Assembly: GCA_937952265.1 (NCBI GenBank)
Contig: CALFYW010000055.1
Coordinates: 1-56,477, forward strand
DNA length: 56,477 nucleotides
Reading direction: 5' to 3'
Origin: an uncultured bacterium
GTDB lineage: Bacteria; Patescibacteriota; Minisyncoccia; Phycocordibacterales; GCA-2401445
In this document: positions 32,513-47,901 of the stretch, piece by piece
Layout of the letters: each line of letters begins with the position of its first letter
How positions within the stretch are numbered: the first letter of the stretch is position 1
Position numbers and translations under genes: made by a program
The notes under the pieces: model-generated
What the model saw: only the letters and a program-made list of their open reading frames with translations
The model's database searches: none
Told to the model about the DNA's origin: nothing

Positions 32513-32609
32513 ATGATTATGCCGCGTGCGCCGACACCAAAATCTCCGTTTTCCATGAAGAATCCAAGTTCCAGAACTTCACGCGGCATAATCCTGGATT
32601 CGGCATAAC
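32513..32609. repeat. RIT right terminal inverted repeat
   Basis: Partner of 29184..29280. Confidence 0.85.
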
Positions 32610-32639
32610 CTCGTTTATGCCGCCCGCGGCATAAACGAG

Positions 32640-34007
32640 ATTGTTATCAATCTCGAAGCGACCGTCGCGAAGATATCCGACCATCGCGGTGTATTCGTTG
32701 ATGAAGTAGCGCACCGCTTTGCCCAGCGTGCTTTTGGGCAACACACGCGGATCCTTCTTCAATTGTTCGGCGCGTTTTTTCATCTCCCGCCAAAGCCCTG
32801 GTGCATGGGCCAGACGTTCCCGGCGGCGCTCTTCAAAGGACGTTTCCCGGATCCGATCTTCGATTCGATAGAGTTCTCGTATTTTCTGAATGAACCAAAG
32901 TCCATCTGGAAGCGATTCCTTGAGCGCCTGAAAAAATCCGCGTCTGGCGTGGCCCAGGCAGCCGATGCGTTTGAGGCGTCCGCCGCCACCACGCCGCAAC
33001 GATTCGTAGACTTGGTAGCCGTCGCTCTGGATGGTGCCCTCAAAGCCCTCGAGCCGGGATGCTGGTCCCGCGCGGCCCCGTCCATCGCAGAACTCCAGGA
33101 GAACATCGCCGCCTGGGTTCGCGTAGAACCATAGGTAACCGGATCCCGCTTTGCCTTTGACTTCCGGATCGAGGACTTTGACGGGAGTCTCGTCGACTTG
33201 GAGGTAAGAGGTGGCTTTGAGCTCCTCCCAGATCGCCCAGTAGATCGCCAAAAGCAGATGGGCGATCTTTTCGACCCACTGCACAATCTGCTGACGGGGG
33301 ATCACGACTCCAAAGCGTTCGCGAAAGTTGCGCTCCAGCGTGTAGTAAGCGACGTGGTCGTCGAAACGGCTGAGCAACAGGAACACCGCCAACCCCAGAC
33401 CCAGCTTGCTTTGCGGCAGCAAGCGCGGCGGCAGCTGAGCAATCGCCACACCGCTGCAACAGTCCCGGCCGCACTCTCCGTATTTGGGCCGGATGATTTC
33501 CTTGATGATGAGCTTGGCCGGCTCGAACTCGTACTCGGTGGTGCGTTCCTGACCCATTCGCGGCCGCAGTTCTCCGGTGATCGGGCAGTGATTGTTCTCC
33601 GGTTCCAAGACCTCGGTGCGCCGGACCAGTTCAACCGGTGGCAGGTGACGGCGTTTCTTTCGATGCTTTCGCCGTTTACCCTGTTGGTCGCGCTCCTTTT
33701 TCTTCTCGTCCTCGACCACGTCCTGGCTCAGCGGCGGTGGGCCCTCGTCAGCCTCCTGGAGCTCGGTGACGAGTTTTCCAAGTTGATCTTCCTCTTCGGC
33801 GGTGAGCTTCTCGGATTTGGAGCCGTAAAGTTGTTGCTTCAAGTCGGCAATGAGGGCCTGCGCCTCGGCCAACTTTTGCTTGTGTTCCTGGGCTTGCTGG
33901 AGGGCTTGATCGAGTTGTTCGTGTACGGCTCGCAACTCCTGCCGAGTGGAGGCCAACTCCCGTTGGGCCTCTTGAAGTTGGTCAACCAAGTCGTGCGGGT
34001 TCTTCAT
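32640..34007 (-). pseudogene. tnpC: 5' part of IS66 tnpC (DDE transposase), truncated by the RIT insertion
   Basis: Starts MKNPHDLVDQLQEAQ. Contains LYGSKSEKL, a Cys-rich zinc region and the DDE_Tnp_IS66 core (YLQVDETPVKVLD...GYLWFY...IQSDGYQVY). It ends at EIDNNLV and then reads into the RIT IR. The ATG overlaps the DUF4338 stop (ATGA at 34004..34007). Confidence 0.9.
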
Positions 34008-34888
34008 GCGCACAGGACCTTTCGAAAATTGGTTTGCAGGGGATAAACATAGATCGCCTTGAGCGGCACCTGGATGGAACCTTGGCGGTCTTGGCGCGTG
34101 CGTCCTTTGGTCAGGCCCACGTTGCGCCAATTGGCGGCCTGATACACCGTGCCCCGGAAGCGGTCCTGCTCGACGAAGGTTTCCAACACCCTCACCGGAT
34201 GTCCGTATTTGCGCTGCCAATCCCCTGCGATCCGTCGGCTGATCCGGCTCAGAAACCAACTTCCTAAACCGGGCGCCTTGATCCAAGGCAAGATCAGGTA
34301 TCGGGTGTTATTGGCGATGAGTCCCAGATTGCGTGCTCGCTGCTCAGCGTTCCACCCGATGAATCGGTCGCGGTCCTGACACTTCCACGCTGGCGCCCCA
34401 AACAACGCGAAGGCCAGCGCACGACCTGTGCGGTCTTGGAGGCAGTATCGAAGGTTTTCGCCGACGCTCCCGCCAAAACCCAAGAAGTGAAACTCTCTAA
34501 GCGCCTGGTCCATGAGCCGGCGTGCCGCGGGCGTTTGACTGATTTCCTCCACGCTCAGGGGCTGCAGCTGCCGCAAGGCCACCACCTCCGTGGGACGCTC
34601 CAACGACGCGGCCGCGCAAGGTTGCGAGCGCCTTCGCGCAACCGGTGCTCGGCGCCGAGGCGGCAGGTTCACCAGACCGCGTGCCTCCAGCTTGAGCAGA
34701 AGCGTGCGCGCGGCCATGTCCTTGAGCCGGCCCGAGCCGTTGCGCCAGTTCCACCGTTGGGCCACTTCCTTGGAAATCCGACACCGATGCCAGTCAGGGT
34801 GGGTGGCGATCAGTTCTCGAATCTGCTCGAGATCCTCGCGCGTCCACGACCGGCCCTGTAGATGGAAGATTTGCGCCACGACCCCCAT
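34004..34888 (-). CDS. DUF4338 (DruA-like) domain protein located between IS66 tnpB and tnpC
   Basis: FHFLGFGGSVGENLRY, LFGAPAWKCQDRDRFIGW, NNTRYLILPWIKAPGLGS, LETFVEQDRFRGTVYQAANWRNVGLTKGRTRQDR. Roughly 45-50% identical by eye to 25550..26398. Confidence 0.85.
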   Translation of the reverse strand: MGVVAQIFHLQGRSWTREDLEQIRELIATHPDWHRCRISKEVAQRWNWRNGSGRLKDMAARTLLLKLEARGLVNLPPRRRAPVARRRSQPCAAASLERPTEVVALRQLQPLSVEEISQTPAARRLMDQALREFHFLGFGGSVGENLRYCLQDRTGRALAFALFGAPAWKCQDRDRFIGWNAEQRARNLGLIANNTRYLILPWIKAPGLGSWFLSRISRRIAGDWQRKYGHPVRVLETFVEQDRFRGTVYQAANWRNVGLTKGRTRQDRQGSIQVPLKAIYVYPLQTNFRKVLCA

Positions 34889-35281: not shown

Positions 35282-35616
35282 GGCTGGCGAAGTGGCTGAA
35301 GAATCGCCCGCACCCATTGCGGATCGGCGCCGGCTTGGAGCCGCACCACAGTCCCGCCCGCCAGGGCTATTTCCGCACCCCAATCGGCCGTCGACTTCAC
35401 CCCTGCTATCCGGATCTCCTGGAAGTCAGCTGCTGCCACTGCTCCCGGCGTCCGCCGCCTTCTCGGCCCGTAGAGCCAGTTGCGAAATGTCGTCCACTTG
35501 ACGCCGTGACGCCGCGCGAACGCCCGCTGCGTCTCGTTGCCGGACCGGAACTCCTTGACCAAGGCCGCGCGCCTCTGCGCCGAATACTGAGCGCGTCGGG
35601 TCGATGCTCGATTCAT
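35275..35616 (-). CDS. tnpA: IS66 orfA/TnpA-like HTH protein (113 aa)
   Basis: YSAQRRAALVKEFRSGNETQRAFARRHGVKWTTFRNWLY. Position is upstream of and overlapping tnpB. Confidence 0.85.
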   Translation of the reverse strand: MNRASTRRAQYSAQRRAALVKEFRSGNETQRAFARRHGVKWTTFRNWLYGPRRRRTPGAVAAADFQEIRIAGVKSTADWGAEIALAGGTVVRLQAGADPQWVRAILQPLRQPC

Positions 35617-35675
35617 CCCGCCAGCCTAACCGACGTCGCCCGCCCGCCGCTAGGCGCGCTCGCCTTGACGCTTAC

Positions 35676-37967
35676 GATCAAATTGGTGAATACTTGTTCA
35701 AGGAGGGCTTGATCTCCCATCACGGTGGGAAGTGGTGCAATCGACCAGGAAATCGCGCGATCGCAGGTTGCCATCTCCAGATCGCTCACGACCGAGTCTA
35801 TTAGGGGATTCAATTCAATTGGAACTTCCCGAAGTGGTCCGCGGGCGGTTTGGGAAAACGACAACAGATCGTCAATGAGCTGTCCCATCCGGATGCTCGC
35901 ACGCGAAATCGTCTCAATATGGCTTTGAGCCCGCTCGGAAAACTGATCCTCAAGCTCCCGCGACAAGAGCGCGGCATACCCATGAATGTGACGCAATGGA
36001 GCACGCAAGTCGTGCGACACTGAGTAGGAGAACGCCTCCAGTTCCTTGTTCGCTGCTTCGAGATCACGTGCGCGGGTCCTGAGATCCGCGTGCAACCGCG
36101 AAATCCGCGCTTCATCTTCTTGGCGCTGCGTAATGTCGTTAAAGAGGACCGCAACCTGTCGGTCACCGAGTTGGCCGAAACGAAACGCATAAACGTCATA
36201 GGTGCGACCCAATGGGTCGGCTCGGTTTTGAAAACGCGCCGGCATGCCCGTGATCGCGACCTTACCCAGATTCTCAATCCAGTGCGCTTCAAGCGCTGGG
36301 AGAAGTTCACGGATGCGCTTGCCGACGACCGAGGAAAGTCCCGTGTGCTTCTCGAATGAGGGATTCACCTCCAGGAACCGGAAGTCTGCCGGTTTACCGT
36401 CGTCGTCGAAGATCATTTCAATGATACAAAAACCTTCATCAATCGACGTAAACAAACCCCGATAGCGCGCCTCACTAGAACGGAGCGCTTTCTGGGCGTT
36501 TCGCTCGGGTGTCACGTCGCGGAATATGAGGACGACGCCAATGACGGCACCATCCCGATCATGGATGGGCGCGGCACTGTCGGCAATCGAACGTTCCGTC
36601 CCGTCACGAGCCAACAAGGCAGTGTGGTTTGCAAGACCCTGAATCGCACCCGTCTCAAGCACCCGATCCACCGGATTCGGAACGGCGAGTCGTGTATCCT
36701 CGTTGATCGTACAGAAGACGTCGGCAACCGCTTGACCGGCGGCGTCACGCATTTTCCAACCGGTCAATTGCTCGGCGATGGGGTTCATTCTCGTTACACG
36801 CGAATCCGTGTCAGTGACCAATACGGCGTCGCCGATCGAGTTGAGGGTGACCGCCAGCCGCTCCTCGCTTTCGCGCAGCGACGCAAACGCCTTGAGCCGT
36901 GAACGGAAGAGTCGAGCGGCAATTACGGCGGTAATGGAAAGCAGCGCCGATAGAATCCCAAACACGGTTCGTAATCCACCAAGGATCGCCGAAAGCTCGC
37001 GGTTCGAAATCTCCGAAGCCATGACCAAAAAGGCGTCTTCGGCAGTGACATATCCGGGCTGGTCCGCGAGGTGGTGACGGGTGTCAACCCGACGCCACGT
37101 GAGAATTCCGCGAGCGCTTCGCTGGTGACCGGTCGCACGCGTCATGACGCGGGCCCAGAGCGCTGGTTCCGATTGCGCGAGGGTCGTGTTTTGACGCTCG
37201 GGGAACATAAAGCCCCATTCGGTGGCGGGATCATCACCCTTGAGCACGAAACCACTCGCATTGAACACTCGAAGACGGTGGTACACGTTTGGCCAGAGCC
37301 TTTGAAACTGAGTGAATAGATGCTGTCCCCGGTAATTGATAACGTAAATACCACGACGTCGGCCGGATTGGTCGAAGATCGGTGTAGCCAAACGTACGAC
37401 AGGTTTGCGGGGCTCCTCCACACGGCCGTCTTCCATATTGAGGCTGAAGGCCGAAACGAAAATCTGGTTGGGCGCCAACTCATTGGCGCGTGCGACGTAT
37501 GACCGATCGGACTTGTCCTTGAGGTCGTTCTCGGGGACGATACGTCCACCTTGATTAACGCGGAACACCTCCAGGCCGCTCGAGTCCAGGAAGCGAAGTT
37601 GGTCAAATTTCGGTTGCTGGCGGCTGATAAACGCCGCACGCGCGACGCTGCGCTCGAGATCAGTCGAACGGCCCGTCTCAAGATAGGCGCGTAGACTGTC
37701 ACCGGTTGAAAGCCTGCGCACGTCATCGGCCAAGACGCGCAACTCCTGCTCGAAAAGCCGGGCGAACATGTCGACGCGGGTACGCTCACGAAGAAGGGCC
37801 GACCGCTCAATTTGACCCGCCTCACGCAAATACGTTCCTCCGCAGAAGACGAGCGCAGTGCCGACAAGGATCCCGGGCAGCAGGAGCGTGGTGCTCCAAA
37901 ACTCTCGCTTCCGTTTCAGTGAACTGCCCATGAGGAATACCGATCTCGATGCGGCGCGTATTCCCAA
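35676..37967 (-). pseudogene. 5' part of the sensor histidine kinase (periplasmic Cache-like sensor, TM, 2 PAS, HisKA), interrupted by IS66
   Basis: PAS segments RESEERLAVTLNSIGDAVLVTD and SEARYRGLFTSIDEGFCIIEM. H-box FSYSVSHDLRAPLRHIHGY. The frame ends at ...EQVFTNLI at the IS66 TSD. The ORF-track tail 35613..35675 is IS sequence. Confidence 0.85.
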
Positions 37968-38180
37968 CGCCTCGCTTCAAATGGTCTCTGATTTGGCGTG
38001 CCCGGTCAATGCCTTGAGGTCGGGCGGAATTCAGCGCACCAGAGTGGTTCCTCAGATCCTCTTACGCACTGTGTGGGGAATAGGGGAACTCCCTGCTTGG
38101 CACCGAGACGAGACCCCATCACCAGCACTGGTGGGATACATTGCGGCTACCGATCGCCCTGCGCCGCTCAACTTGGAATA

Positions 38181-38387
38181 TTACGAGGCACGAAAGAAGT
38201 CCTCGAGAAATCGTCGGGCGCAGGTAGGGCAATACCCATGACTCAGTTGCTGCTTCGACAGGGGAGCGATTCCGAGTGGACCCCACGAACCGTCCTCTTT
38301 CTTGACACGCCCACAAACGCAACAAATCAAATGGAGCCCGGATTTCCCCGGTTTCCTCTCCCGCTGTGCTCCAGGTTCCATGGGCAT
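38181..38387 (-). CDS. Small Cys-rich protein with a CxxC...SHGYCPxC motif (~68 aa from MPMEP)
   Basis: LHLICCVCGRVKKEDGSWGP...LSHGYCPTCARRFLE resembles the C.yCkkiRdd.G.W...fSHGiCP.C tail seen on some PAS/sensor proteins. Confidence 0.4.
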   Translation of the reverse strand: MPMEPGAQRERKPGKSGLHLICCVCGRVKKEDGSWGPLGIAPLSKQQLSHGYCPTCARRFLEDFFRAS

Positions 38388-38437
38388 TCGAGCACGAGCA
38401 CAGACGATGCCACGCGCCGCGCCCGTCCATGGGGCGC

Positions 38438-38691
38438 TCAAGCATGGTTGTGTCGTTTCTCGACGGGATCGATCTCAACGTCATGGGTCGGCATCGCTTG
38501 AATCGTGATTGATCCTTCGTCAAGACTCGTCCGCAAAAACTCGGCACCGTGAAGCGCCGAATCGCAGAATGGACAATTGGACGATTGACCTGCATGCGCG
38601 GCGCGGATTCAAGCTGCCGCCCGAGAATCGCCATCCCCGCAAAGGTAAACCGGCACTTATCGCAACGGAATTCAAACTCGAGTGTGTTCAT
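38438..38691 (-). pseudogene. Frameshifted paralog of the small zinc-ribbon family
   Basis: MNTLEFEFRCDKCRFTFAGMAILGRQLESAPRMQ in one frame. The second knuckle (SSNCPFCDSAL...HNHA*) lies in the +1 frame. The shift is near 38580..38595. Confidence 0.4.
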
Positions 38692-38791
38692 AGGTGGTTT
38701 CGGGCAATCGATCATCCGTTCCGGGCCGCAACGGTGCGCCTCAGGCGCCAGATATCGTGTGGCCACATGGGGGGGCGAATCGGAGACGGTG

Positions 38792-39001
38792 TCACCGGGG
38801 TTCTTCTCGTTTCTCAAATAATGCGGCGTCATGCACCTTCGTCCACCGGTATCCAAACTCGTCGGCAAGTTCTTTCCACTGGGGATCCCACTCCGAATAC
38901 ACATCCTGGACGACAACGAACCGTTTCCCAGCCTCCATGAGGATCCGTGCCTTGGTCAAGGCATCGGGCTCCAAACCGTTCAAGTAGTCATGCAGTTCCA
39001 T
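38792..39001 (-). CDS. Hypothetical small protein (69 aa from MELHDYLNG)
   Basis: Protein-like composition (MELHDYLNGLEPDALTKARILMEAGKRFVVVQDVYSEWDPQWKELADEFGYRW). No family recognised. Confidence 0.4.
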   Translation of the reverse strand: MELHDYLNGLEPDALTKARILMEAGKRFVVVQDVYSEWDPQWKELADEFGYRWTKVHDAALFEKREEPR

Positions 39002-39079
39002 GGGAACGAAGAACGCCGCCCCCCGAGGTACACGTGAGAGGCGGCGGTTGGATGCTTCCACAGGACACCGCTGTCCTTG

Positions 39080-39295
39080 TCACGGGTTGAATCGACCGAA
39101 TTCCTGAATGTCTGAAGTTCCACCGTTCGTAGGGCCGTTGCCCGTGCCGCGGATGAGTTCGCCAGGCAACGTCTTTCCGCAACCTGGGCATTTGATCTGC
39201 ACGGACGGGGTACTCCGCAGATCGTCGGGAACCAGGAATGCGCCCCCAACCACCGAGACGCAATCCCAACAGCGAAATTCATACTCCAAGGTCAT
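39080..39295 (-). CDS. Small zinc-ribbon protein (71 aa), paralog of 25254..25469
   Basis: MTLEYEFRCWDC...IKCPGCGKTL. Lies 113 nt downstream of the serine recombinase on the same strand. Confidence 0.5.
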   Translation of the reverse strand: MTLEYEFRCWDCVSVVGGAFLVPDDLRSTPSVQIKCPGCGKTLPGELIRGTGNGPTNGGTSDIQEFGRFNP

Positions 39296-39408
39296 AGCCT
39301 ACCAAGACATATTCCCGTTCGTTTAGCGTGTCACTTCCATTACGCTTTGGTGACACGACTGCGGTCCCCCAGACGCCCCGGCCCGTTCAACCGAACACCG
39401 CACCTTAG

Positions 39409-41460
39409 TCAATATATCCCATCCATCGGCGGCCCGCTCTCCGATGATCCGCCATTGAAAGGGTCAAACCCGATGACCGCGGACAGCCGCTTCCGCATCG
39501 CGTGTCCCGGCCGGCGCCGACCGAGCTCCCACCCGATCATCGTCTTATCCGAGACCCCCACCGCTTCCGCGAACTCCTTCACCGTCAGCCGCTGGTGCAT
39601 TCGATAGGCTCGAAGACGCCCTCCACCGTCGGTCTCAGACGTGGATAACAAGGCCACGTCATGGGGTTTGGTGCTCCGGGGTGCACCAGCCGCCGGATCC
39701 GTAAACGGATCAAACCCCAGAAAAGCGGCGATCGCTGGTTGATGAACCCAGGCAGGGAAGACTTTTCCGCACTCCCAGCGACTGAGTGTTACCGTGCTAA
39801 CCTTGAGCAAATGCGCTACTTGCGCTTGCCGCAAACGCTTTTCCGCACGCCGCTTGATGAGGAATTCGCCCACGGTATTGGGCTGCGTTGGAACGAGCGC
39901 TCCTCGGACCCGGACGGGCAAAAACGCTGCTCGATCCGCACGAATCACTCGGTAGCAACAAGGCAACGTCGCCAACAGGTTTCGTTGCCTTTTTGTGAGC
40001 GCTTCAGAAGAAGGTGATGCACAAAGTGTTATCGTTACGGTCTGGTTTGATACTTCGATCGATTCCACAATGCTTTCAATTAGGCCGCGCTTGTCCTCCG
40101 GTGACAAGCGCGGCCAAGAAGCATGCAGGTTCATGGCTTCGCCCACGACTTCTTCCGCTGAAAGCTCGTGGATCTTGAGTGCATCGAGCTCGCCTTGGAG
40201 CTTGGGCAACTCCGACGCGAGGGTGCGTTCCTGCGCTTCGAGGGGGCTGTTGAGGGATCCGAATCCCTCGGTCGAGATCTGATCGTCTTGGTAAAGCCGG
40301 TAGACCTTACGCTTTTCTTCCCGAACGCGATCCAACCGGCGTTCATGGGCGGTCACCCGACTCTCGAGATCCCGAACATGCTCGCTTGCATGCTCCAGGT
40401 GCTCGCGCACAGCGTCTTCGGAGACCAGGAATGCCTTAAGGCGTTCCCGAAAGATCGCTTCCAAATCCTCGGCCGGGATCTTGGTTCGACATTGCGAACA
40501 GACATATTTCGGCGAGCGGGAGAACACGTACATTTTTCGGCCACACCCGCACCGGAGGAGACCGGCAAACAGATGCACCGGTTTTGGGCCGGGCGCCTGA
40601 CCGTTGCTGCGCCGATCACGTAGGATCTCGTTGCACTGCTCCCAGAGCGTCTCCGAGACCAACGCATCAACGGGGGTATGGACCCACTCCGACTCGGGCT
40701 TGGTCTGAAGCTTTCCCCGAGCATCCCGAAAGGTATGATTGGACCGATACCGGCCCTTGGCGGTTGGATCCCGAATGAGCCGATCAATCGTGGTATCCGT
40801 GAATGCGGCTCCCTTTCGCGTCCGATATCCTGCGTCGTTTACCACGCGCACCACGGTCTTGATGCGGCGGTGTTCGAGAAACAATTCGTAGATCCACTTG
40901 CGGATCGGCCCCTCAGACGGGTCGATTTCCAAGCGGTTGTCCACCCAACGGTAGCCAAACGGAGCCGCCCCGCCCAAGTTCTTACCCAATTCGGCCCGCA
41001 CCCGTATCGATGCCCGGACCCGATCGGTGATCTCCTCACGCTCCCACTGCGCCATGGCAGCGATAATGGTGAAGAAGAGCCTTCCCGCCGGTGAGGATGT
41101 GTCGATCGACTCTTGCAGTGAGATTAAATCAGCGCCGAGGTCCCGGAACTGGTCGGCAAAATCAAGCAACTCACGGGTATTTCGAGCGAGGCGGGCGAGT
41201 TTGGAGAAAATCAGGGCGGAAATATGTCCGCGCGTGATATCGCGAATCATCCGGACCGCTTCCGGGTGGTCCTTGACGGATTTCCCGCTCACTGCCTCCA
41301 AATGGTAAATCTCGCGGACCGCCCACCCTTGAGATTCGGCGTAGGCACGCGCGCGGCGTTCGTGGTGATCGGGGCTGTCGCCTCGGGCTTGGTCCTCCGT
41401 CGATACGCGGATCCAAATCCCCACTGAACGGGGTGATGAACGGGCCGACCGCGCCTTCAT
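39409..41460 (-). CDS. Large serine recombinase with two C-terminal XRE-type HTH modules (683 aa)
   Basis: Resolvase catalytic N-terminus VGIWIRVSTEDQ...ALIFSKLARLARN...LQESIDTSSPAGRLFFTIIAAMAQWERE. Recombinase domain, Cys-rich zinc ribbon (LLRCGCG...YVCSQC) and a coiled coil. Then VGEFLIKRRAEKRLRQAQVAHLLKVSTVTLSRWECGK and LRAYRMHQRLTVKEFAEAVGVSDKTMIGWELGR. Confidence 0.95.
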   Translation of the reverse strand: MKARSARSSPRSVGIWIRVSTEDQARGDSPDHHERRARAYAESQGWAVREIYHLEAVSGKSVKDHPEAVRMIRDITRGHISALIFSKLARLARNTRELLDFADQFRDLGADLISLQESIDTSSPAGRLFFTIIAAMAQWEREEITDRVRASIRVRAELGKNLGGAAPFGYRWVDNRLEIDPSEGPIRKWIYELFLEHRRIKTVVRVVNDAGYRTRKGAAFTDTTIDRLIRDPTAKGRYRSNHTFRDARGKLQTKPESEWVHTPVDALVSETLWEQCNEILRDRRSNGQAPGPKPVHLFAGLLRCGCGRKMYVFSRSPKYVCSQCRTKIPAEDLEAIFRERLKAFLVSEDAVREHLEHASEHVRDLESRVTAHERRLDRVREEKRKVYRLYQDDQISTEGFGSLNSPLEAQERTLASELPKLQGELDALKIHELSAEEVVGEAMNLHASWPRLSPEDKRGLIESIVESIEVSNQTVTITLCASPSSEALTKRQRNLLATLPCCYRVIRADRAAFLPVRVRGALVPTQPNTVGEFLIKRRAEKRLRQAQVAHLLKVSTVTLSRWECGKVFPAWVHQPAIAAFLGFDPFTDPAAGAPRSTKPHDVALLSTSETDGGGRLRAYRMHQRLTVKEFAEAVGVSDKTMIGWELGRRRPGHAMRKRLSAVIGFDPFNGGSSESGPPMDGIY

Positions 41461-41525
41461 AGATGCTTAAGACGGTAGCAACCACGACTTTCTCGGGCAA
41501 GTCACCAACCCCCAGCTCCCCCCAG

Positions 41526-44500
41526 CTATTTCCCCCGTTTCTTGCGCTTCTTGCGTGCTTCTCGCGCCGCGATATCGATCAGTTTGGAAGGTAGAGGAGG
41601 CTTCTTCGGGCCACTTGCTGGCGGGGCAACGGAAACCTTCCATCCATTGACCACCGGCGTATCATCATGCGTGGGACACGCATCTTTGATTTCCTGTAGG
41701 AGGTGCCAGACATCCTCCACGAGACAGAACCGAACGTTCGTGAGGACTCCAGGCGGAAACTGCTGTCGCGCTGCATGTTCGAGGGCGTCTAGTGCAGTCC
41801 GGTCGGTTGCAACCATGACCACCCAGAATATGCCGTGGGCGAGGAGTTGTCCCAGGCCGCGGAGCTCATGCTCGACTGAGGTGGTTTGCGAAATCTCGAC
41901 CGCGATTCGCTGCTCCCCTCTGGTCAAGAGCACATCAATCCTCCGGTCACCCAACGGCACCTCTTTGTGCGCGGTGAATCGCAGCCCACTGGCAATTTCA
42001 ACGATGCGGTCTTGGTAAAAGGTGTGTGTGGGGCCCGGACAGGCTGCTCCCGGTTTTGCCTTGGCTGGCTCCGGGGGCGGCGACGCGGGCAGGTCGTGGG
42101 CAGGAATCGAGGAGGAATTGTCGGTGGCACTCGGTGTATGAGCCGGTGGAACTGCGGCAGGGCCCGACGCTGCAGCCGGAGCGGGCGGTGGCGTAATCGG
42201 GGGCGTTGGCGCGGGTGGTTCTCCAAGTGATTCCTCCGGAGGCGGTGAATCCGGCGGCTCATGAGCCCTCTCCTTGCGCGATGGCTGAGCGCCTCCCGCC
42301 AAACGCTCGGTGCGTCGCGTGGCAAGCAGTTCTTCAACACTCGCTCGACTTCGGGCAAAGCGCACACGCGAGTTCGCTCGAATCCGCGCGCGCCGGGATG
42401 CCGCTATGTCGGCAGCGGGGAAATCAGGGAGCACTGTGCTGAGATTGAAGTCAGCATCCGCTCGCTCAACCCGCATAATCGCTTCTCCGCGGGAGAGATT
42501 CTGCAGGTCGTTGGCCTCGAACGATTCGAAACCCTCAGCAATGCGCCGGGCGTCATGGTCTCCAACGCGAAAACAAATGCGCGTCAGCGGGTGCGAGAGG
42601 ACGGCACTCAGTACCTCCGGGCTTCGCGCGAGCTGCTCGAGTTCATGGTGAGCGAGGGTGAGCCCTAACTTGTATTTGCGCACCCCAGAGAGAATCGTTG
42701 CAAGAGACGGTGTGACGAAATGGTGGAATTCATCAATATACAAAAAGAACGGACGCCGCTCGGTTTCCGCCACCTCCTGGCGGGCAATGGTGATCTCGTA
42801 GAATTTTGCCACCAAGAGTGTGCCCAAGAGATACGCATCGTCCGGATTGATGAGCCCATGCGATAGCTTGGCGAGGAAGATCTTCCCCTCATTCATGATC
42901 CGAGCGACGTCGATCTTGTTGTCGGGCTGACCCACCATGTGCCGGATGATCTTCGGCATGAGGAACGTGTTAAGGCGGGTAAGAAGCGGTCCGATGGAGT
43001 TCGATTTGAGAATGGGGAACTCGTGCGTCCAGTAGTATATGACTTCAGGGTCAGAAACAGACTCAAGGAACTGCTTTCGAACCGTGCGATCAACGAGAAA
43101 GCGCCGCAGATCATCCAGGGTCCCGCCCCGCGCGCTCTCGACAAACGCGAGGATCGCATTGCCGAGCACCACGTTCATTTGGTCACCCCAGGATGTCGAC
43201 AGACGACGGAAAACCGCCACCAGATCCGCCGCCAGGAGCTCCTTCTCAGTTTCGTTGTGTGCGGAGAGGACGTTGAATCCGATTGGATACTCACGGTCAG
43301 AGGGATCGAAGAGGATAACGTCGTCAATGCGATCTTCGGGGATTGCGCCGGCAATCTGGTCGACGAGATCCCCGTGGGGTTCGATGAGGGCAATTCCGCG
43401 ACCGGCGGCGATGTCCTGCAGGATCATGTTTGCCAAGAGCGTGGATTTCCCGGATCCGGAGCTTCCGATACAATACGTGTGCTGAATGCGTTGGTCGACC
43501 GAGAGCGCGACCGGCATCGCAATACCCTCATGCAGGTTAGCGCCCAGAACCACGCCATCCCCGAGCACCGCTTCCGGAGCCCGTTTGGTTCGCTTCGCTC
43601 CGCGCTTTAGCTTCTTCACCTCAACCGCGGCAGTGGGCAGGTGCGCGATGGACGCCAGTTCGGTGCCGTTGAGAATCATTCCGCTGCGGTTTGAGCAACG
43701 CATCAGAAGTTCGAACTCGCGTTGCGGTGGATCTGCGTTCTCATCCTCAAGCGCGATCAGCGAGTTTGTCTGCGGCGTTCCAAAGAGCTCGAGAGCCCCA
43801 GCCAGTCCGGCAAAGACCTCCCACGCACGTGCAGGATTCGCTGCCGCTGCCGCGACGCGAACCACCACCGCGAACAACGAGCGCGACAGCTTCTCACGCG
43901 CCTTTGGAAGCATCTCAGGCGCATTCACAAAGAAGCAATCACCACGCTCGGTGGTGACCGCGCGCACCGTACTTTCCGCCCATCGGTGGCGGACGGGCTG
44001 AAAGAGAATCTGAAATACGCCAGCTTCATGCTTCCCGAGCCGACTAAGCGCGGCGCAAACGGCAACCATCGGATCAATCGCCAGCTGTCGGAGTGTCGAC
44101 AAGGGAATCATGAACTCCTGATCAAGGCCAAACTCGCGGATAACCTGATAGGTATCATCACTCTCGGCGTGTTGCCTCCAGCATTTCGCAAGCGCGCCGC
44201 TCGTGCGGATAATTGCAGCCTCGGGAAAGTGCGCGCCAAGTTGTGCATTGACAACCTCCGCATCGTTCGGGTGTGTTGCGATCTGGGTTGCGATGGTATC
44301 CGCATCCCCAAAGACTTCGAAAGCAAGTGATCCCTCGGTATGGGCAAGGCTTGCGATGCATTGCTCGAACACTGCCGGCCGCGGTTCATACTCGTGCGGG
44401 AGGGTGACCGACAATTCCACGGGATCGGGAAACGCCTCCCGGTAATTTACCGGAGGATCGAGAATTTCGGGATTGTGCGTTCTGCTGGACTCGTCGTCGA

Positions 44501-44723
44501 TCGACTTCGTGAGGACTCGGCATACCGCATCCGCCAGACGCGACCACATGGTCGGAACCTGTCCATCGTCAAGGATGACGCGACGGGGAAGTGAATGACC
44601 GGGGAACGGAATGAAAGGAGGTTCAAGGTCAACGGGCGCCTCCCAGGTCATCCATCCCCTCCCGCGCAGCTCCCAGCGATAAAACTGCTCGGTTAAGAGC
44701 TCCGATGCGGTGGAAACGCTCAT
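41526..44723 (-). CDS. FtsK/HerA/TraD-superfamily P-loop ATPase with unassigned N-domain, Pro-rich linker and C-terminal PD-(D/E)xK-like domain (1065 aa)
   Basis: Walker A IGSSGSGKST (43440..43469). IALIEPHGDLVDQ, ILFDPSD..YPIGFNVL. Walker B FFLYIDEFHHF (~42717..42749). Linker PPDSPPPEESLGEPPAPTPPITPPPAPAAASGP. C-terminus GDRRIDVLLTRGEQRIAVEISQTT. Confidence 0.9.
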   Translation of the reverse strand: MSVSTASELLTEQFYRWELRGRGWMTWEAPVDLEPPFIPFPGHSLPRRVILDDGQVPTMWSRLADAVCRVLTKSIDDESSRTHNPEILDPPVNYREAFPDPVELSVTLPHEYEPRPAVFEQCIASLAHTEGSLAFEVFGDADTIATQIATHPNDAEVVNAQLGAHFPEAAIIRTSGALAKCWRQHAESDDTYQVIREFGLDQEFMIPLSTLRQLAIDPMVAVCAALSRLGKHEAGVFQILFQPVRHRWAESTVRAVTTERGDCFFVNAPEMLPKAREKLSRSLFAVVVRVAAAAANPARAWEVFAGLAGALELFGTPQTNSLIALEDENADPPQREFELLMRCSNRSGMILNGTELASIAHLPTAAVEVKKLKRGAKRTKRAPEAVLGDGVVLGANLHEGIAMPVALSVDQRIQHTYCIGSSGSGKSTLLANMILQDIAAGRGIALIEPHGDLVDQIAGAIPEDRIDDVILFDPSDREYPIGFNVLSAHNETEKELLAADLVAVFRRLSTSWGDQMNVVLGNAILAFVESARGGTLDDLRRFLVDRTVRKQFLESVSDPEVIYYWTHEFPILKSNSIGPLLTRLNTFLMPKIIRHMVGQPDNKIDVARIMNEGKIFLAKLSHGLINPDDAYLLGTLLVAKFYEITIARQEVAETERRPFFLYIDEFHHFVTPSLATILSGVRKYKLGLTLAHHELEQLARSPEVLSAVLSHPLTRICFRVGDHDARRIAEGFESFEANDLQNLSRGEAIMRVERADADFNLSTVLPDFPAADIAASRRARIRANSRVRFARSRASVEELLATRRTERLAGGAQPSRKERAHEPPDSPPPEESLGEPPAPTPPITPPPAPAAASGPAAVPPAHTPSATDNSSSIPAHDLPASPPPEPAKAKPGAACPGPTHTFYQDRIVEIASGLRFTAHKEVPLGDRRIDVLLTRGEQRIAVEISQTTSVEHELRGLGQLLAHGIFWVVMVATDRTALDALEHAARQQFPPGVLTNVRFCLVEDVWHLLQEIKDACPTHDDTPVVNGWKVSVAPPASGPKKPPLPSKLIDIAAREARKKRKKRGK

Positions 44724-45460
44724 CGCGTCGGACGCGCAGAACCACCAAAGTGCGGTCGCATCTCCTCATCCGAGAGCGCTCGAACGCCGCTCTCGACGGT
44801 CATGGTCGCAACCGACTCCATCACCGCGCGGTGTACAGCTTCGCGATACATTTCCCGTTGGTCTTGTCGGTAATAGGTATCGGGATGGAACAGGGTCTCG
44901 AAAATGGGGCCGATCCAAGGAACAATGCAAAGGGTCTCGTCGAGCCACACCGCGAAACCCGCGACCGCAAGACGCATCAATGACCAGATCGTGGTAATCA
45001 AGAGACCGGTCACGATAATACCAACCATTCCGCCGAACTCGTTCCACACGCCGGCGGCGATGAGAATGAGCATGCCGAGGACGATGACATAGTCCATAAA
45101 GCGTGCATCCCGGCGCCGGTCAAAGAGCCGGGACGAGACGAAATATCCCGTACCGAAGGGAGCGGCACAGACTTCAAAGACCAGCCGTTCCCGTCGCAAT
45201 TGGAGATAAATCCGTTCTCGAGAGAAAATAGTTCCCTCACGCAACTTGACTGCACCGACGAGGAGCCCTGGAACCTCGCGCTTGGCAAGGTTCTCCGTGA
45301 CCAGGGAATAGAAGTCGCGGGGTGAATAGCTGAAGCTCTCAAGGAGCGTGCACCAGTAGGAGAGGAGAGTGTTGCGGCGCGCCAGTGCTGCTTTAGCCTT
45401 CCTCCGAGCCGCCTCCCAGGATTCGAGCGTCTCTGACGTGTGCTCGGAAGTATCGGCCAT
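44720..45460 (-). CDS. Membrane protein (246 aa; cytoplasmic N-domain plus 2-3 TM helices)
   Basis: Hydrophobic helices FMDYVIVLGMLILIAAGVW, MVGIIVTGLLITTIWSLMRL and AVAGFAVWL. ATGA overlap with the ATPase gene (44720..44723). Confidence 0.8.
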   Translation of the reverse strand: MADTSEHTSETLESWEAARRKAKAALARRNTLLSYWCTLLESFSYSPRDFYSLVTENLAKREVPGLLVGAVKLREGTIFSRERIYLQLRRERLVFEVCAAPFGTGYFVSSRLFDRRRDARFMDYVIVLGMLILIAAGVWNEFGGMVGIIVTGLLITTIWSLMRLAVAGFAVWLDETLCIVPWIGPIFETLFHPDTYYRQDQREMYREAVHRAVMESVATMTVESGVRALSDEEMRPHFGGSARPTR

Positions 45461-45462
45461 AG

Positions 45463-47121
45463 TTAGCGCAACTCGTGGCGGAGCTTTGCGACGAATTCCT
45501 CCGCGATTTCGCGCCGGCGCCCGTCGGCAATCGCGGGATTCTCCGGCTTATACTTCCGCGGATGAATCGGAATCAAACTCTCTGGCTTGATACCTTGAAA
45601 AATGGAGAGCGTAACCTTCTCTCCAAGTGCGTAATCCCAAAACTTCGCGTAACACGCTACCTCATTCGGTAGGACTTCACTGAGAAGCAACACTGCCCGC
45701 CGGCCCACGGAGCCAAAGCCCTTGCCGGTGCAATGAATGAGGATGGTATCGGCTCGGACTCGGGTCTCATTCACCAACTCCCAACGAATCGGGCGGGCAT
45801 TAAGCGAGCGAACGAGTGCTTCGCGCACCTCACCCAGTGGGTGATTGAAATCCCATCGGTGCGTGTCAAAAAGGTCTGCATGGGTAAGGGAGTCCGTCGC
45901 ACCCGAGAACGCTTGTGCGGGGAACTGCCGCTTGGCTGCCTCCTCCGCTTGACGCGCCGCCGCCTGTCGAGCCTCTTGTTCCGCCCCCAATCGAGCCAAT
46001 GCCTCGGCCTTGATTGACTCGGCTTCAGGATCACCCGGCCGCTCGGCCAGGGCAGCATTCGCGGCATCAAGAATCCGCTCATAATCAGGCGAGCGCAACC
46101 TCGCGAGGCGACGAGCGTCATCCATGGCGCTCCCGTAGGCTCGACTTACCAGGTTGGTGGCGATCGAGACCACCTCATCCGCCGCAAGCGTCACGTTTAG
46201 CGTGAGCGGCAGAAACCCCTCAGCACGAACTTGGTATCGATAAGCCCCAGGCAGGAGCTCCTTTCTTGATAGGGGGGTGGCTCCCATCTCTAATCCATTC
46301 TCAGTGACTGTTGCATTCGGCGGATCGGTAGTGAGCTCAAAGGTCCCGTAGGAGAAGGCCGCATGCGCCCGATTCGTTGATCCCGCTCCAACGATCGCCG
46401 ACACCTCCTTGCGGTGCTTCCCACGGATCACATGAACCTCATAGATTCCCTCGGGCAAATTAACCAGGGTCGCGGGAGTTTCCCCTGAACGCGCGATCCG
46501 CTTCCGAGCGCGAGACAGCAGTTCAAACACTGCATCCGGCGGGTCGCTGGTAATGGTGAGGTTTCCGACCGGTGGTGTGACCGCGACCCGCGATACACCG
46601 AGTCGAGTCACCTCAACTTCCCGCACCTCGCTAAAGTGCTCGAAGCGAACCACAATCTCGTATCGACCAACCGGGAGGGAAATTGGGTCGGAGGGCCGCT
46701 CAGATAAGGTTAACTCCTTATGGGGCCCCTGAATCTCGATTTCGAGAGGATCAGGTTCGACGAGCATCTCCAGGCTCCCGCGGCTCCACTCCAGTTCAAC
46801 TGTTCCGAGATCATTCACCCCATACCAAAGGAAACGCCGCTCTGAATACGGCTCCGTGTCCTCTCCAGCAACCGTGATGGTGCGCCAACCCAACGGAAGC
46901 CGACCATCGCCCACGGCCGTGCTTCCAACCGTAACCGTCACCGGAACTCGATTTGAAACGTGCCCCTCAATCTCTACGGTGAAGGTAAGCGTGGATCCCT
47001 TTGCTCGTGCAACATGATACTCCCGGACGAGGAGTAGCGCACTGATCGCGATCCACACGAGCAGTGGCCGGAAGGCGATCACCCATGTTCCCCCGTTCAA
47101 ATGAAGTTGAGACACTCCCAT
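45463..47121 (-). CDS. N-terminally membrane-anchored PEGA-repeat protein with helical and unassigned C-terminal domains (552 aa)
   Basis: TM WVIAFRPLLVWIAISALLLV. PEGA-like units LTITSDPPDAVFEL..GETPATLVNLPEGIYEVHV and FELTTDPPNATVTENGLEMGATPLSRKELLPGAYRYQVRAEGF. The stop is 2 nt before the next start. Confidence 0.85.
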   Translation of the reverse strand: MGVSQLHLNGGTWVIAFRPLLVWIAISALLLVREYHVARAKGSTLTFTVEIEGHVSNRVPVTVTVGSTAVGDGRLPLGWRTITVAGEDTEPYSERRFLWYGVNDLGTVELEWSRGSLEMLVEPDPLEIEIQGPHKELTLSERPSDPISLPVGRYEIVVRFEHFSEVREVEVTRLGVSRVAVTPPVGNLTITSDPPDAVFELLSRARKRIARSGETPATLVNLPEGIYEVHVIRGKHRKEVSAIVGAGSTNRAHAAFSYGTFELTTDPPNATVTENGLEMGATPLSRKELLPGAYRYQVRAEGFLPLTLNVTLAADEVVSIATNLVSRAYGSAMDDARRLARLRSPDYERILDAANAALAERPGDPEAESIKAEALARLGAEQEARQAAARQAEEAAKRQFPAQAFSGATDSLTHADLFDTHRWDFNHPLGEVREALVRSLNARPIRWELVNETRVRADTILIHCTGKGFGSVGRRAVLLLSEVLPNEVACYAKFWDYALGEKVTLSIFQGIKPESLIPIHPRKYKPENPAIADGRRREIAEEFVAKLRHELR

Positions 47122-47901
47122 CGATCTCGCAGGTGTGCCAAAAAGAATTCGTCGATGCGAGAGCGGCCTTACGATTTCGGGAGCTTCCGCAAAATGACCG
47201 CGGATTCAGGCACCCGGAACCGCATGGTCCAACAGCGTTGAAGACCATGCGGTTTCGTTAGAGCGCTTACCACGGAAACGCCGCCGTTATCGGAATCCCA
47301 CATTTAGTTAGTTCCGTTCGCACGAACCGTTCCGCTCCTTCGCCTGACACTCATTGTCAAGTTCGCCGCTGGTCGGTTTAGTATGCCGAACGTCGTAGTC
47401 CACCGTGGGCCATTTGGAACAATTCTTGCACCAATGCCATGTGTCTGATCCCTTCTTTCGTCGATACTCAGCCATTATTCTCACCCCCGATTCCGCTTTG
47501 TTACTGTAATTGTGAAACTGAAGCTCCGCTCAAGGCACAAGGCATCCCATAATCAGTCTTGGACGATGTCCGGCCTTCAAAAGCGAACCGATTCAATGTG
47601 GGCTGCGGGCCGGAGAAGCCCCTTTTCTGGTGCCGCGATGTAACGCGACCCTCCTATCGTCGCAGGCGATTTGAGGTCATCGTGCTGCCAGACCCGATTT
47701 TTGCGCCTCCGACCCGCAGCCACCTGTACGGATAACCCAATCGTTTGAAATACGCTGCCGATACCTCCGTTCTTTCAATGAATATCCTCGATTAAACTTC
47801 TGATCGGGTTAGCCCCTCAAGGCGAACGGGTTGCACCACGAAAAACCTGATACTTTCAGAAAAATTCTTGAAAGAACCGAGCCGTTCCAGTCGTATACAG
47901 G

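Follow-up and report, generated by a model that had tools for sequence, protein, structure and literature searches.

What does a four-gene module made up of a PEGA membrane protein, a two-transmembrane (2-TM) protein, a large P-loop ATPase and a large serine recombinase (LSR) do for the DNA that carries it? Such a module occupies positions 39,409 to 47,121 of a 56,477-nucleotide stretch from an uncultured bacterium (GenBank assembly GCA_937952265.1, contig CALFYW010000055.1), which is referred to as the window. An earlier note, made from these letters alone, offered two alternatives for the module, which is called here the islet: (a) a membrane-associated system of defense against phages or plasmids, or (b) a minimal FtsK/TraB-like module for the transfer of double-stranded DNA. 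The comparisons described below show that the islet is a minimal (~8 kb) member of a large family of integrative elements. As to its function, we tentatively favor, at somewhat less than an even chance, an element-encoded, membrane-tethered DNA translocase that serves the element's own horizontal transfer or mobilization.

The four open reading frames (ORFs) were found on the minus strand (Table 1) with the junctions, spacer and motifs that the earlier note had described. Genes 1 and 2 are joined, on that strand, by TAA-CT-ATG; gene 2 and the ATPase gene share an ATGA overlap; and 65 nt separate the ATPase stop codon from the recombinase ATG, which lies on the same strand. The arrangement was compared with that of 91 related loci (designated L followed by a number) taken from annotated contigs, reference genomes, metagenomes and IMG/VR, to which further annotated contexts were added later; a single-sequence scan of reference genomes yielded two loci. 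The family comprises more than 824 full-length homologues and at least 516 confirmed metagenome loci, and its hosts are Verrucomicrobiota, Acidobacteriota, Desulfobacterota and related soil and freshwater bacteria. Its core consists of the 2-TM protein, a coupled soluble ATPase of ~1,030-1,065 aa and, usually, an LSR of a single clade at the end of the element. A homologue of gene 2 was located directly upstream of the ATPase gene in 85 of the 91 loci, and the other six are contig ends. This arrangement is beyond chance: the pair was found in every one of the loci having upstream sequence. The complete order PEGA-TM-ATPase-recombinase recurs in L004, L007 and L093, with 45-50% protein identity and unrelated housekeeping genes on the flanks, which indicates that the minimal ~8-9 kb form is a conserved state.

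The PEGA, TM and ATPase genes had been considered as a trio whose synteny could be checked. The synteny analysis did not bear the trio out; what is conserved is the TM-ATPase pair together with the recombinase. Orthologues of gene 1 were present beside the pair in 21 of the 91 loci (about one quarter), on the same strand in five of them and divergently oriented in 16. An obligatory trio was rejected on these grounds, most loci being devoid of PEGA, and in L006 the protein encoded upstream of the pair is unrelated to it. The PEGA protein is a recurrent accessory outside the core. The description of gene 1 as a TM-anchored protein with PEGA-type repeats held: it has a single TM helix near the N-terminus (aa 14-36), and aa 186-257 and 258-327 each form a PEGA-type beta-sandwich unit. 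Pfam PEGA PF08308 matched residues 260-325 with an E value of 1.4e-16, as expected of a PEGA beta-sandwich, and the other unit, at aa 186-257, scored z 4.8 against shuffled sequences. The two units are followed by a charged region (~aa 330-400), probably coiled, and by a C-terminal alpha/beta region.

The recombinase contains the Pfam domains Resolvase (E 3e-32), Recombinase (E 2e-17) and Zn_ribbon_recom (E 4e-5) plus two C-terminal helix-turn-helix (HTH) domains, the composition of an HTH-fused LSR as had been claimed. The catalytic domain spans aa 15-160, with the serine motif RVSTEDQ at aa 17-23, and is followed by the recombinase domain (181-283), the zinc ribbon (297-336) and the HTH domains (531-585 and 616-655). 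Matches to the NCBIfam models CcrB, XisF and CcrC were below the equivalog cut-offs. The fusion of LSR and HTH recurs in L092. Judged by its domains, the protein is a large serine integrase of the ordinary kind, apart from the two HTH domains fused to its C-terminus, a fusion that is unusual but recurrent.

An LSR gene was found downstream of the ATPase gene, on the same strand, in 28 of the 38 loci with at least 5 kb of downstream sequence, usually at a distance of 0-3 kb. The LSRs of the family form one clade (32-93% pairwise identity), and pairwise identities of ATPases and LSRs are correlated (r 0.52, a value reached by 0 of 2000 permutations), as are those of ATPases and TM partners (r 0.78). 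In 14 loci (L003, L005, L010-L012, L017, L020, L022, L037, L041, L044, L079, L088 and L091), the 3' end of the LSR gene convergently overlaps a truncated comM (Mg-chelatase-like) ORF by 28-100 bp. The LSR gene is therefore at the very end of the element, and those members are integrated inside comM. Their recombinases are a specific comM-targeting integrase clade, and the insertion would inactivate comM, which encodes a competence helicase. At the left end of the comM-type elements, no C-terminal comM fragment was detected within 10 kb upstream; the clusters that were found are antisense shadows of conserved genes. The linkage to the LSR, its position at the comM end and the correlation of identities support the view that the module rides on a serine-recombinase-mobilized islet. 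Some contigs include two serine recombinases within 15 kb (L094, 1934-7553 and 9458-19009; L004, 13144-14595 and 20208-23141), and L094 adds a second small DUF87/TrwB ATPase; the doubled recombinases suggest tandem accretion of related elements at neighboring sites. Terminal overlaps, the mark of circular contigs, were absent in every locus checked.

The space between the ATPase and recombinase genes, empty in the window (65 nt), is occupied in relatives by 0-7 kb of variable cargo. The cargo genes encode TIR/ThsB, SLATT, DUF6788, small HTH, methyltransferase, QueC/TGT, Schlafen AlbA_2, ThiF and other proteins; examples of the slot are L008 13106-14311, L044 13357-17990 and L090 4288-10777. 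DUF6788 and small HTH proteins recur just ahead of the recombinase and could be directionality or regulatory factors. The DNA upstream of the TM-ATPase pair is also variable across loci. Neighboring genes were identified with a simple ORF caller, and the 25 most frequent Pfam families were listed. At least one conjugation- or mobilization-type gene was present in 19 of the 37 loci with at least 8 kb of upstream sequence. These genes code for a coupling-type ATPase of ~400-500 aa with TrwB_AAD_bind, TraG-D_C or DUF87 domains (9/37), ArdC (7/37), Toprim primase (7/37), DUF932 (5/37), RadC (3/37) and Replic_Relax (3/37), and some relatives have RuvC-like and primase genes. L020 and L035 share the order small ATPase, Replic_Relax, primase, ArdC (followed by RadC in L020), variable genes, TM partner, large ATPase, cargo where present, and recombinase; the truncated comM of L020 comes after its recombinase. 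No VirB6/8/9/10/11-type protein or classical MOB relaxase was among the frequent Pfam families of the neighbors scanned.

No full-length homologue of the ATPase was found on 72,556 plasmids or in 50,697 phage genomes, where the relatives consist of the core only or of the N-terminal domain plus the core. Plasmids of Bacillus sp. CMF21 and Metabacillus encode a 774-870-aa protein that is 25% identical (E 6e-27) to the window ATPase over residues 204-753 of the latter, an alignment of ~600 aa that takes in half of the N-terminal domain and the whole motor. On both plasmids the homologue is encoded between a primase gene and a Replic_Relax gene. The CMF21 cluster continues with TcpC, TcpE and an AAA_10 VirB4-type ATPase, and that of Metabacillus includes one annotated conjugal transfer protein. 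The plasmid homologues occupy the coupling-protein position of a Firmicute-type conjugation module. The temperate Bacillus phage Staley (L100, 66656-69755) encodes an 829-aa homologue (22% identity over 623 aa, E 3e-19 by BLASTP) in the order small membrane protein, ATPase homologue, tyrosine integrase, and the Geobacillus phage TP-84 (L103, 30267-32806), also temperate, has the same membrane-protein and ATPase pair.

The ATPase was divided into regions with a conservation profile built from 117 aligned full-length homologues, which showed three conserved blocks and one variable, Pro-rich linker. The four-part organization that had been read from the sequence was in this way supported. The invariant motif FYxWExRGRGW ... 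EPPFxPF lies within residues 1-75, where LTEQFYxWExRGRGW is conserved. An automatic gene call for the identical protein (P0001) has 1041 aa, and the conserved motif is upstream of its start; the start that gives 1065 aa is therefore the right one. Residues 100-400, part of an N-terminal region that had been left unassigned, correspond to DUF8128 (PF26449) according to the precomputed annotation of homologues; Pfam lists the domain as no more than a DUF, and NCBI gives the protein a generic name. Residues 1-405 were modeled with AlphaFold2 (AF2) from a 24-sequence alignment as an alpha/beta domain (pLDDT 84.3, pTM 0.83). The top Foldseek matches of this model in the PDB were the TrwK/VirB4 chains 8rtd, 8rtb and 7o43 of the R388 type IV secretion system (T4SS), with E 3.6e-5 and probability 1.0, in alignments of ~370 columns with TM-scores of only 0.35-0.39 and root-mean-square deviations of ~8 Å. 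A search of BFVD, a library of viral structures, gave far stronger matches, to proteins of the Bacillus phages Slash (E 3.5e-19), G (gp156, E 1e-16) and JL (E 2e-14), with TMq ~0.54, and a profile of the N-terminal domain gave 3,211 cluster representatives. The model suggests that the first ~400 residues resemble the fold of the VirB4 N-terminal domain and are common to ATPases of Bacillus phages and plasmids. The sequence of the window ATPase did not match CagE_TrbE_VirB (PF03135) or AAA_10. Searches with PDB profiles and relaxed Pfam thresholds produced nothing useful for the N- or C-terminal domains, and both were assigned through structure prediction and Foldseek.

Residues 401-800 are the most conserved part of the protein. 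The Walker A (GSSGSGKS, 420-427) and Walker B (YIDEF, 662-666) motifs are conserved in 81 family members. The region matched Pfam TrwB_AAD_bind PF10412 (E 2.6e-7, 30.3 bits against a cut-off of 20.5) and, weakly and far below the equivalog cut-offs, the TraD families of NCBIfam; a PDB profile search placed TrwB (1e9r, E 3.6e-6) ahead of DotL and HerA. Among the PADLOC models, mad8, a core-only ATPase of 314 aa, matched residues 412-750 with E 3e-18, and HerA covered the Walker A region alone (E 0.002-0.0075). The core had been described as one of the translocase or coupling-protein kind, and the Pfam, NCBIfam and PDB profile results narrow this to a predicted P-loop motor of the TrwB/VirD4 (type IV coupling protein) type. 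No FtsK_SpoIIIE domain (PF01580) was detected in the window ATPase, and the precomputed annotations assign it to one among the 120 listed homologues; Pfam and NCBIfam scans of the window protein gave no replication-initiator or helicase signature. The linker (~800-891), the sole unconserved stretch, has column identities of 0.16-0.34 and 24-56% gaps, and its Pro/Ala-rich sequence is presumably flexible.

The C-terminal domain (residues 892-1065), without matches in Pfam or among PDB sequences, was modeled by AF2 with a pLDDT of 86.6 and an alpha-beta-beta-beta-alpha-beta topology. Foldseek matched the model to Can2, AF1548, Bax1, BspD6I, EcoT38I and Cdn1 (E 3e-4 and weaker, best probability 1.0) in the PDB. 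The model thus bears out the PD-(D/E)xK fold that had been suggested for this domain. E921, D930 and E943 are invariant in the family, with H900, Q904, E953, N956 and K959 close to invariant. Across the family the third strand is E-I-S, without the canonical lysine at position +2 of (D/E)xK, and for this reason K959, on the next helix, is likely the substitute catalytic lysine. The window copy has G956, Q959 and L960 in the region where the family has N956 and K959. It departs from the family at 5 of the 14 positions of this domain that are at least 90% conserved (median for other members, 0). Elsewhere the counts of conserved positions that it keeps are 18/18 (N-terminal motif), 50/54 (N-terminal domain) and 142/153 (motor). 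Consequently, the nuclease-like domain of the window is probably catalytically compromised and the rest of the protein is under normal constraint; the domain, as its residues suggest, may only bind DNA or be inactive.

The 1065-aa ATPase has no hydrophobic or TM segment, and therefore no membrane anchor of its own; the recombinase is likewise devoid of TM segments. Gene 2, for which two or three TM helices had been predicted, was found to have two (~121-143 and 148-171) that form a TM hairpin. It has a soluble N-terminal part of ~115 aa with the motifs REYLR and CAAPFGTGFFVS and a conserved C-terminal segment, IPxIGxIYExLFxPxTYYRxDT. The family of TM partners (~220-245 aa) has more than 950 homologues, none of them with a Pfam domain or a name, and gene 2 itself matched nothing in Pfam, PADLOC or NCBIfam. 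It is translationally coupled to the ATPase gene through the ATGA overlap, and we infer that its product acts as a membrane anchor or adaptor for the ATPase.

A transfer pathway can be proposed that accommodates these components. The recombinase would excise the element as a circle and reintegrate it. The 2-TM protein would tether the ATPase to the inner membrane through the N-terminal domain of the latter, in the way VirB3 does for VirB4, and would stand in for the TM anchor that is built into canonical coupling proteins. What VirB3 does structurally for VirB4 is known from the R388 structures. The ATPase would then oligomerize and move the DNA of the element towards a mating channel, provided probably by a co-resident conjugative system; the islet would in that case be an integrative mobilizable element (IME) with its own coupling-type motor. 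The tethered C-terminal domain, placed where FtsK has gamma and TraB its winged HTH, would recognize DNA and, in most members, probably cut or nick it.

A role in the life cycle of the element is likelier than a role as cargo because the pair is fixed amid cargo turnover and co-varies with the integrase. The homologies of the ATPase and its conjugation-associated company make DNA handling for horizontal transfer the most likely form of that role; the minimal members have no mating-pore genes, and transfer would therefore depend on a helper T4SS. There are mobilizable elements with serine integrases that insert into genes, some of them equipped with a non-canonical coupling protein of their own (PMC5704250). 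Of the two alternatives in the earlier note, DNA transfer fits better than defense, because of the conjugation-type genes of the larger relatives and the Bacillus plasmid homologues in the coupling-protein slot; its autonomous, TraB-like mechanism was not borne out.

A number of observations weigh against the transfer role. The window islet and the minimal members L004, L007, L093 and L094 contain no recognizable gene for a relaxase or a mating pore and no recognizable oriT, and the 72,556 plasmids include none with a full-length homologue. Elements with Replic_Relax carry a separate small coupling-type ATPase, and so the large ATPase would be unneeded there as a coupling protein. No coupling protein is known to have a nuclease domain. 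Of the homologous pairs of Bacillus and Geobacillus phages, one adjoins the phage integrase, a position typical of lysogeny-expressed exclusion genes, and the cargo beside the pair is rich in defense-type domains. The covariation of ATPase and LSR could, moreover, result partly from shared host phylogeny.

A different explanation, which we consider rather unlikely and nonetheless the one to be taken most seriously after transfer, is a membrane-tethered ATPase-nuclease that degrades incoming DNA (phage, plasmid, transforming DNA or a competing element) at the inner membrane and so protects host and element. Defense systems commonly pair a translocase with a PD-(D/E)xK nuclease; the best matches of the fold include the CRISPR-ancillary nucleases Can2 and Cdn1 as well as restriction enzymes; and the core matches PADLOC mad8 with the E value given above. 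Genes of the TIR/ThsB, SLATT, restriction-modification and Schlafen types abound nearby, the Staley pair adjoins an integrase, where prophages often keep exclusion genes, and the disruption of comM by many elements is consistent with a conflict between elements and incoming DNA. However, the pair is constant while its neighbors vary, and it co-varies with one integrase clade across 37-80% identity, unlike mobile defense cargo. The plasmids and phages searched hold no full-length copies, and the window copy lacks the near-invariant N956 and K959 though the rest of the protein is conserved. Membership in a named defense system was rejected: PADLOC returned mad8 and a weak HerA match on the ATPase core, matched the recombinase through HTH or coiled-coil noise and left genes 1 and 2 without a match, with no complete known system and no other MADS gene. 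The earlier note had likewise been aware of no named system with this gene combination. The window islet might also be a reduced, largely inert derivative of a larger element, with intact ORFs and no mobility of its own, which is improbable. It is without the ArdC, primase, relaxase-family and small-ATPase genes of its larger relatives, its nuclease-like domain is unusually divergent, with the 5 changes among 14 conserved positions, and it has one insertion context in all five assemblies. Against such decay, four ORFs are intact, the family-invariant residues are kept in the N-terminal motif and domain, the Walker motifs and the recombinase catalytic motif, and the recurrence of the layout at 45-50% identity in L004, L007 and L093 argues for selection on the minimal form.

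Two other explanations keep the element active and dispense with a partner channel or with transfer. FtsK/TraB-like autonomous transfer of double-stranded DNA, with the TM protein and the ATPase (plus PEGA) as the whole apparatus that moves the excised circle, is very unlikely. The minimal elements hold nothing further besides the integrase, the layout of membrane anchor, motor, flexible linker and C-terminal domain of DNA-recognition type is FtsK/TraB-like, and the PEGA protein, membrane-anchored and probably a periplasmic beta-sandwich, recurs beside the pair. Yet the window protein has no Pfam FtsK_SpoIIIE match, PEGA is absent from about three quarters of the loci, and no clt-like repeat array was found; TraB-type transfer is known in mycelial actinomycetes only, and the hosts here are diderm, with no outer-membrane component evident. 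A more specific proposal, in which the 2-TM protein, the ATPase-nuclease and the integrase (with PEGA in some lineages) form a self-sufficient, T4SS-independent system that moves ~8-kb islets between diderms, the motor exporting or importing the circle and the PD-(D/E)xK domain acting as the equivalent of a relaxase, is given little credence. An equally small probability is assigned to maintenance without any transfer role, where the motor-nuclease would help the excised circle to replicate, resolve or segregate, or would be an addiction module. The core gene set adjoins the integrase, RuvC-like and primase genes occur in some relatives, and SCC elements, which are likewise serine-recombinase islands, keep helicase and replication genes beside ccr. 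The ATPase has, however, no replication-initiator or helicase signature, its closest contextual homologues sit in conjugation modules, and maintenance leaves the membrane tethering unexplained.

The features of the locus are collected in Table 1.

Table 1. Features of the islet and the adjacent upstream stretch (positions in the window).
Feature	Position	Strand	Evidence
Gene 1, PEGA membrane protein, 552 aa	45463..47121	-	ORF, Pfam PEGA, TM helix
Gene 2, 2-TM partner, 246 aa	44720..45460	-	ORF, overlap, family alignment
ATPase, 1065 aa	41526..44723	-	ORF
ATPase residues 1-400: N-terminal motif and DUF8128 domain	43524..44723	-	Conservation, PF26449 on homologues, AF2, Foldseek
ATPase residues 401-800: predicted P-loop motor	42324..43523	-	Pfam, NCBIfam, PDB profile, PADLOC
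ATPase residues 801-891: Pro/Ala-rich linker	42051..42323	-	Conservation profile
ATPase residues 892-1065 and stop: predicted PD-(D/E)xK-fold domain, then basic C-terminal helix	41526..42050	-	AF2, Foldseek
65-nt spacer between ATPase and recombinase; cargo slot in relatives	41461..41525	-	Sequence
Large serine recombinase, 683 aa	39409..41460	-	Pfam
ORF-poor, lower-GC stretch upstream of gene 1	47122..47901	.	ORF list, GC

Upstream of gene 1, about 640 bp had been described as free of ORFs. No ORF of at least 60 aa was found in 47262..47901, in agreement with that description; the full intergenic stretch is longer, 780 bp, with a GC content of 0.53 compared with 0.58-0.60 around it. It presumably includes the promoter and possibly the other boundary of the element; promoter and terminator scans of this region gave results at chance level. 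A 15-nt inverted repeat (47215-47257, 93% complementary, 13-nt spacer), ~95-135 nt upstream of the start of gene 1, could be an operator or a hairpin. Att-like direct repeats, which the earlier note had considered for the recombinase and gene 1 sides, did not rise above chance: the best direct or inverted match between 38.9-39.4 kb and 47.1-47.95 kb was 15/22, the mean of shuffled sequences. Long att direct repeats are not expected with serine integrases. Repeats within either flank are short and chance-like, with no clt-like array. The tRNA and Rfam scans of the window found none, and a tRNA-linked integration site is accordingly unsupported.

The context of the islet is identical in all five assemblies that carry it (as recognized by an identical gene 2), and there is no empty site among them. 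Two independent assemblies of the same organism, L097 and L098, break inside the ATPase gene ~1.9 kb from its start, and in L099, a third assembly of the locus, a different ATPase start was called; strain heterogeneity within the gene may be responsible. The flanking genes of the window encode an ECF-type sigma factor, glycosyltransferases and a Ser/Thr kinase-WD40 protein; among named homologues, the closest are verrucomicrobial. GC content is ~0.42-0.53 in 1-24000 and ~0.55-0.61 in 25000-56477, and the left part may be foreign DNA or another genomic compartment. The sensor histidine kinase that adjoins the islet (35613-37967) has Cache, PAS and HisKA domains and ends abruptly without HATPase_c. 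Just past its 3' end are a DruA-like (Druantia) ORF and an IS66-family transposase (34004-34888 and 32517-34286; all minus strand), and the kinase may have been truncated by another insertion. Several small ORFs, none with a Pfam match, occupy 37968-39408, between the kinase and the recombinase. They include an 86-aa CxxC protein (38181-38441), and two Cys-rich, zinc-ribbon-like proteins with similar N-termini are encoded at 39295 (MTLEYEFRCWDC) and within 38119-38916 (MNTLEFEFRCDKC). These small proteins may be part of the islet, perhaps with a directionality factor among them, or of the host.

The family is large and spans several phyla that are dominant in soils and freshwater and have poorly known mobile elements; a literature search on DUF8128 and on combinations of serine recombinase, comM and coupling protein returned no mention of DUF8128 and no description of this type of element. 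Should the transfer role be correct, the family would be a new class of IMEs whose motor has an outsourced membrane anchor and has gained a nuclease-fold domain, with a bearing on the diversification of coupling proteins, VirB4 and FtsK-type pumps and on the spread of genes among uncultured soil phyla. A defense role would make it a new membrane-associated defense or exclusion system, unusual in its fixed link to one integrase clade, and a self-sufficient, T4SS-independent system would amount to a conjugation-like apparatus of a new and very small kind. The slot between ATPase and integrase is a likely place for new defense genes. The recombinase clade, including the comM-targeting members, consists of defined site-specific integrases with natural cargo slots and may interest genome engineering.

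Among known systems, the type IV coupling proteins (TrwB/VirD4/TraD and TcpA) share with the islet ATPase the P-loop core, as seen in the TrwB_AAD_bind, TraD, TrwB 1e9r and DotL matches, and the location on integrative elements; remote homologues of the ATPase are found beside Replic_Relax and Tcp-type transfer genes. Unlike them, the islet ATPase is devoid of an N-terminal TM segment and has a separate 2-TM partner, adds an N-terminal region of 400 aa predicted to be VirB4-like and a predicted PD-(D/E)xK-fold domain at the C-terminus, and resembles the family models in sequence mainly around Walker A. The minimal elements lack relaxase and T4SS. No such genes accompany the ATPase in the window, and in the 3 of 37 larger relatives where Replic_Relax is present it is paired with a different, small ATPase. 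The VirB3-VirB4 pair (TrwM-TrwK) offers a parallel for the small TM gene immediately upstream of, and coupled to, a large ATPase gene, and VirB4 is the best PDB match for the predicted N-terminal fold. The resemblance ends with the low TM-scores mentioned above, the lack of CagE_TrbE_VirB or AAA_10 matches, a TM partner about twice as long, and neighborhoods in which that partner was the only candidate mating-pore family among those scanned. FtsK/SpoIIIE/TraB pumps, which in actinomycete integrative and conjugative elements (AICEs) also belong to integrating DNA, have the same succession of anchor, hexameric-type motor, Pro-rich linker and small C-terminal DNA-handling domain. In the islet, however, anchor and motor are separate proteins, the C-terminal domain is of a nuclease fold and not a winged helix, and FtsK_SpoIIIE is not matched.

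HerA-nuclease systems and mad8 of MADS likewise combine an FtsK-HerA superfamily translocase with a PD-(D/E)xK domain, and the islet core matches mad8 and, weakly, HerA. No HAS-barrel was identified in the islet ATPase, whose N-terminal model matched VirB4-type proteins and not HerA in the Foldseek searches. Of the MADS components mad8 alone was matched, a weak mad1 hit being the HTH of the recombinase, and the module has no methyltransferase. Its pair is fixed to one integrase clade, and the partner has no match in defense databases. The pairs of Bacillus and Geobacillus phages (Staley gp96-98, TP-84, G gp155/156 and Slash) possess the same N-terminal domain and motor and a small membrane protein upstream; the phage proteins, of 750-830 aa, are without the linker and the nuclease-fold domain. 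Serine-integrase IMEs, such as those of the Tn4451 type and the streptococcal TcpA IMEs, resemble the islet as elements: they are small, have the LSR at one end and no long flanking repeats, integrate inside genes (comM in 14 of the islet's relatives) and bring their own coupling-type ATPase (PMC5704250). The islet differs in its hosts, which are diderm soil phyla and not Firmicutes, in a minimal form without a recognizable relaxase and in an ATPase of another family fused to a nuclease-fold domain, and its mobilization is a prediction. In its predicted mode of working, the ATPase is most like a coupling-type DNA motor, with features that set it apart from canonical coupling proteins, VirB4, FtsK/TraB, HerA and MADS. 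The islet is thus an integrative and probably mobilizable element with a non-canonical coupling-type ATPase, and not something categorically new.

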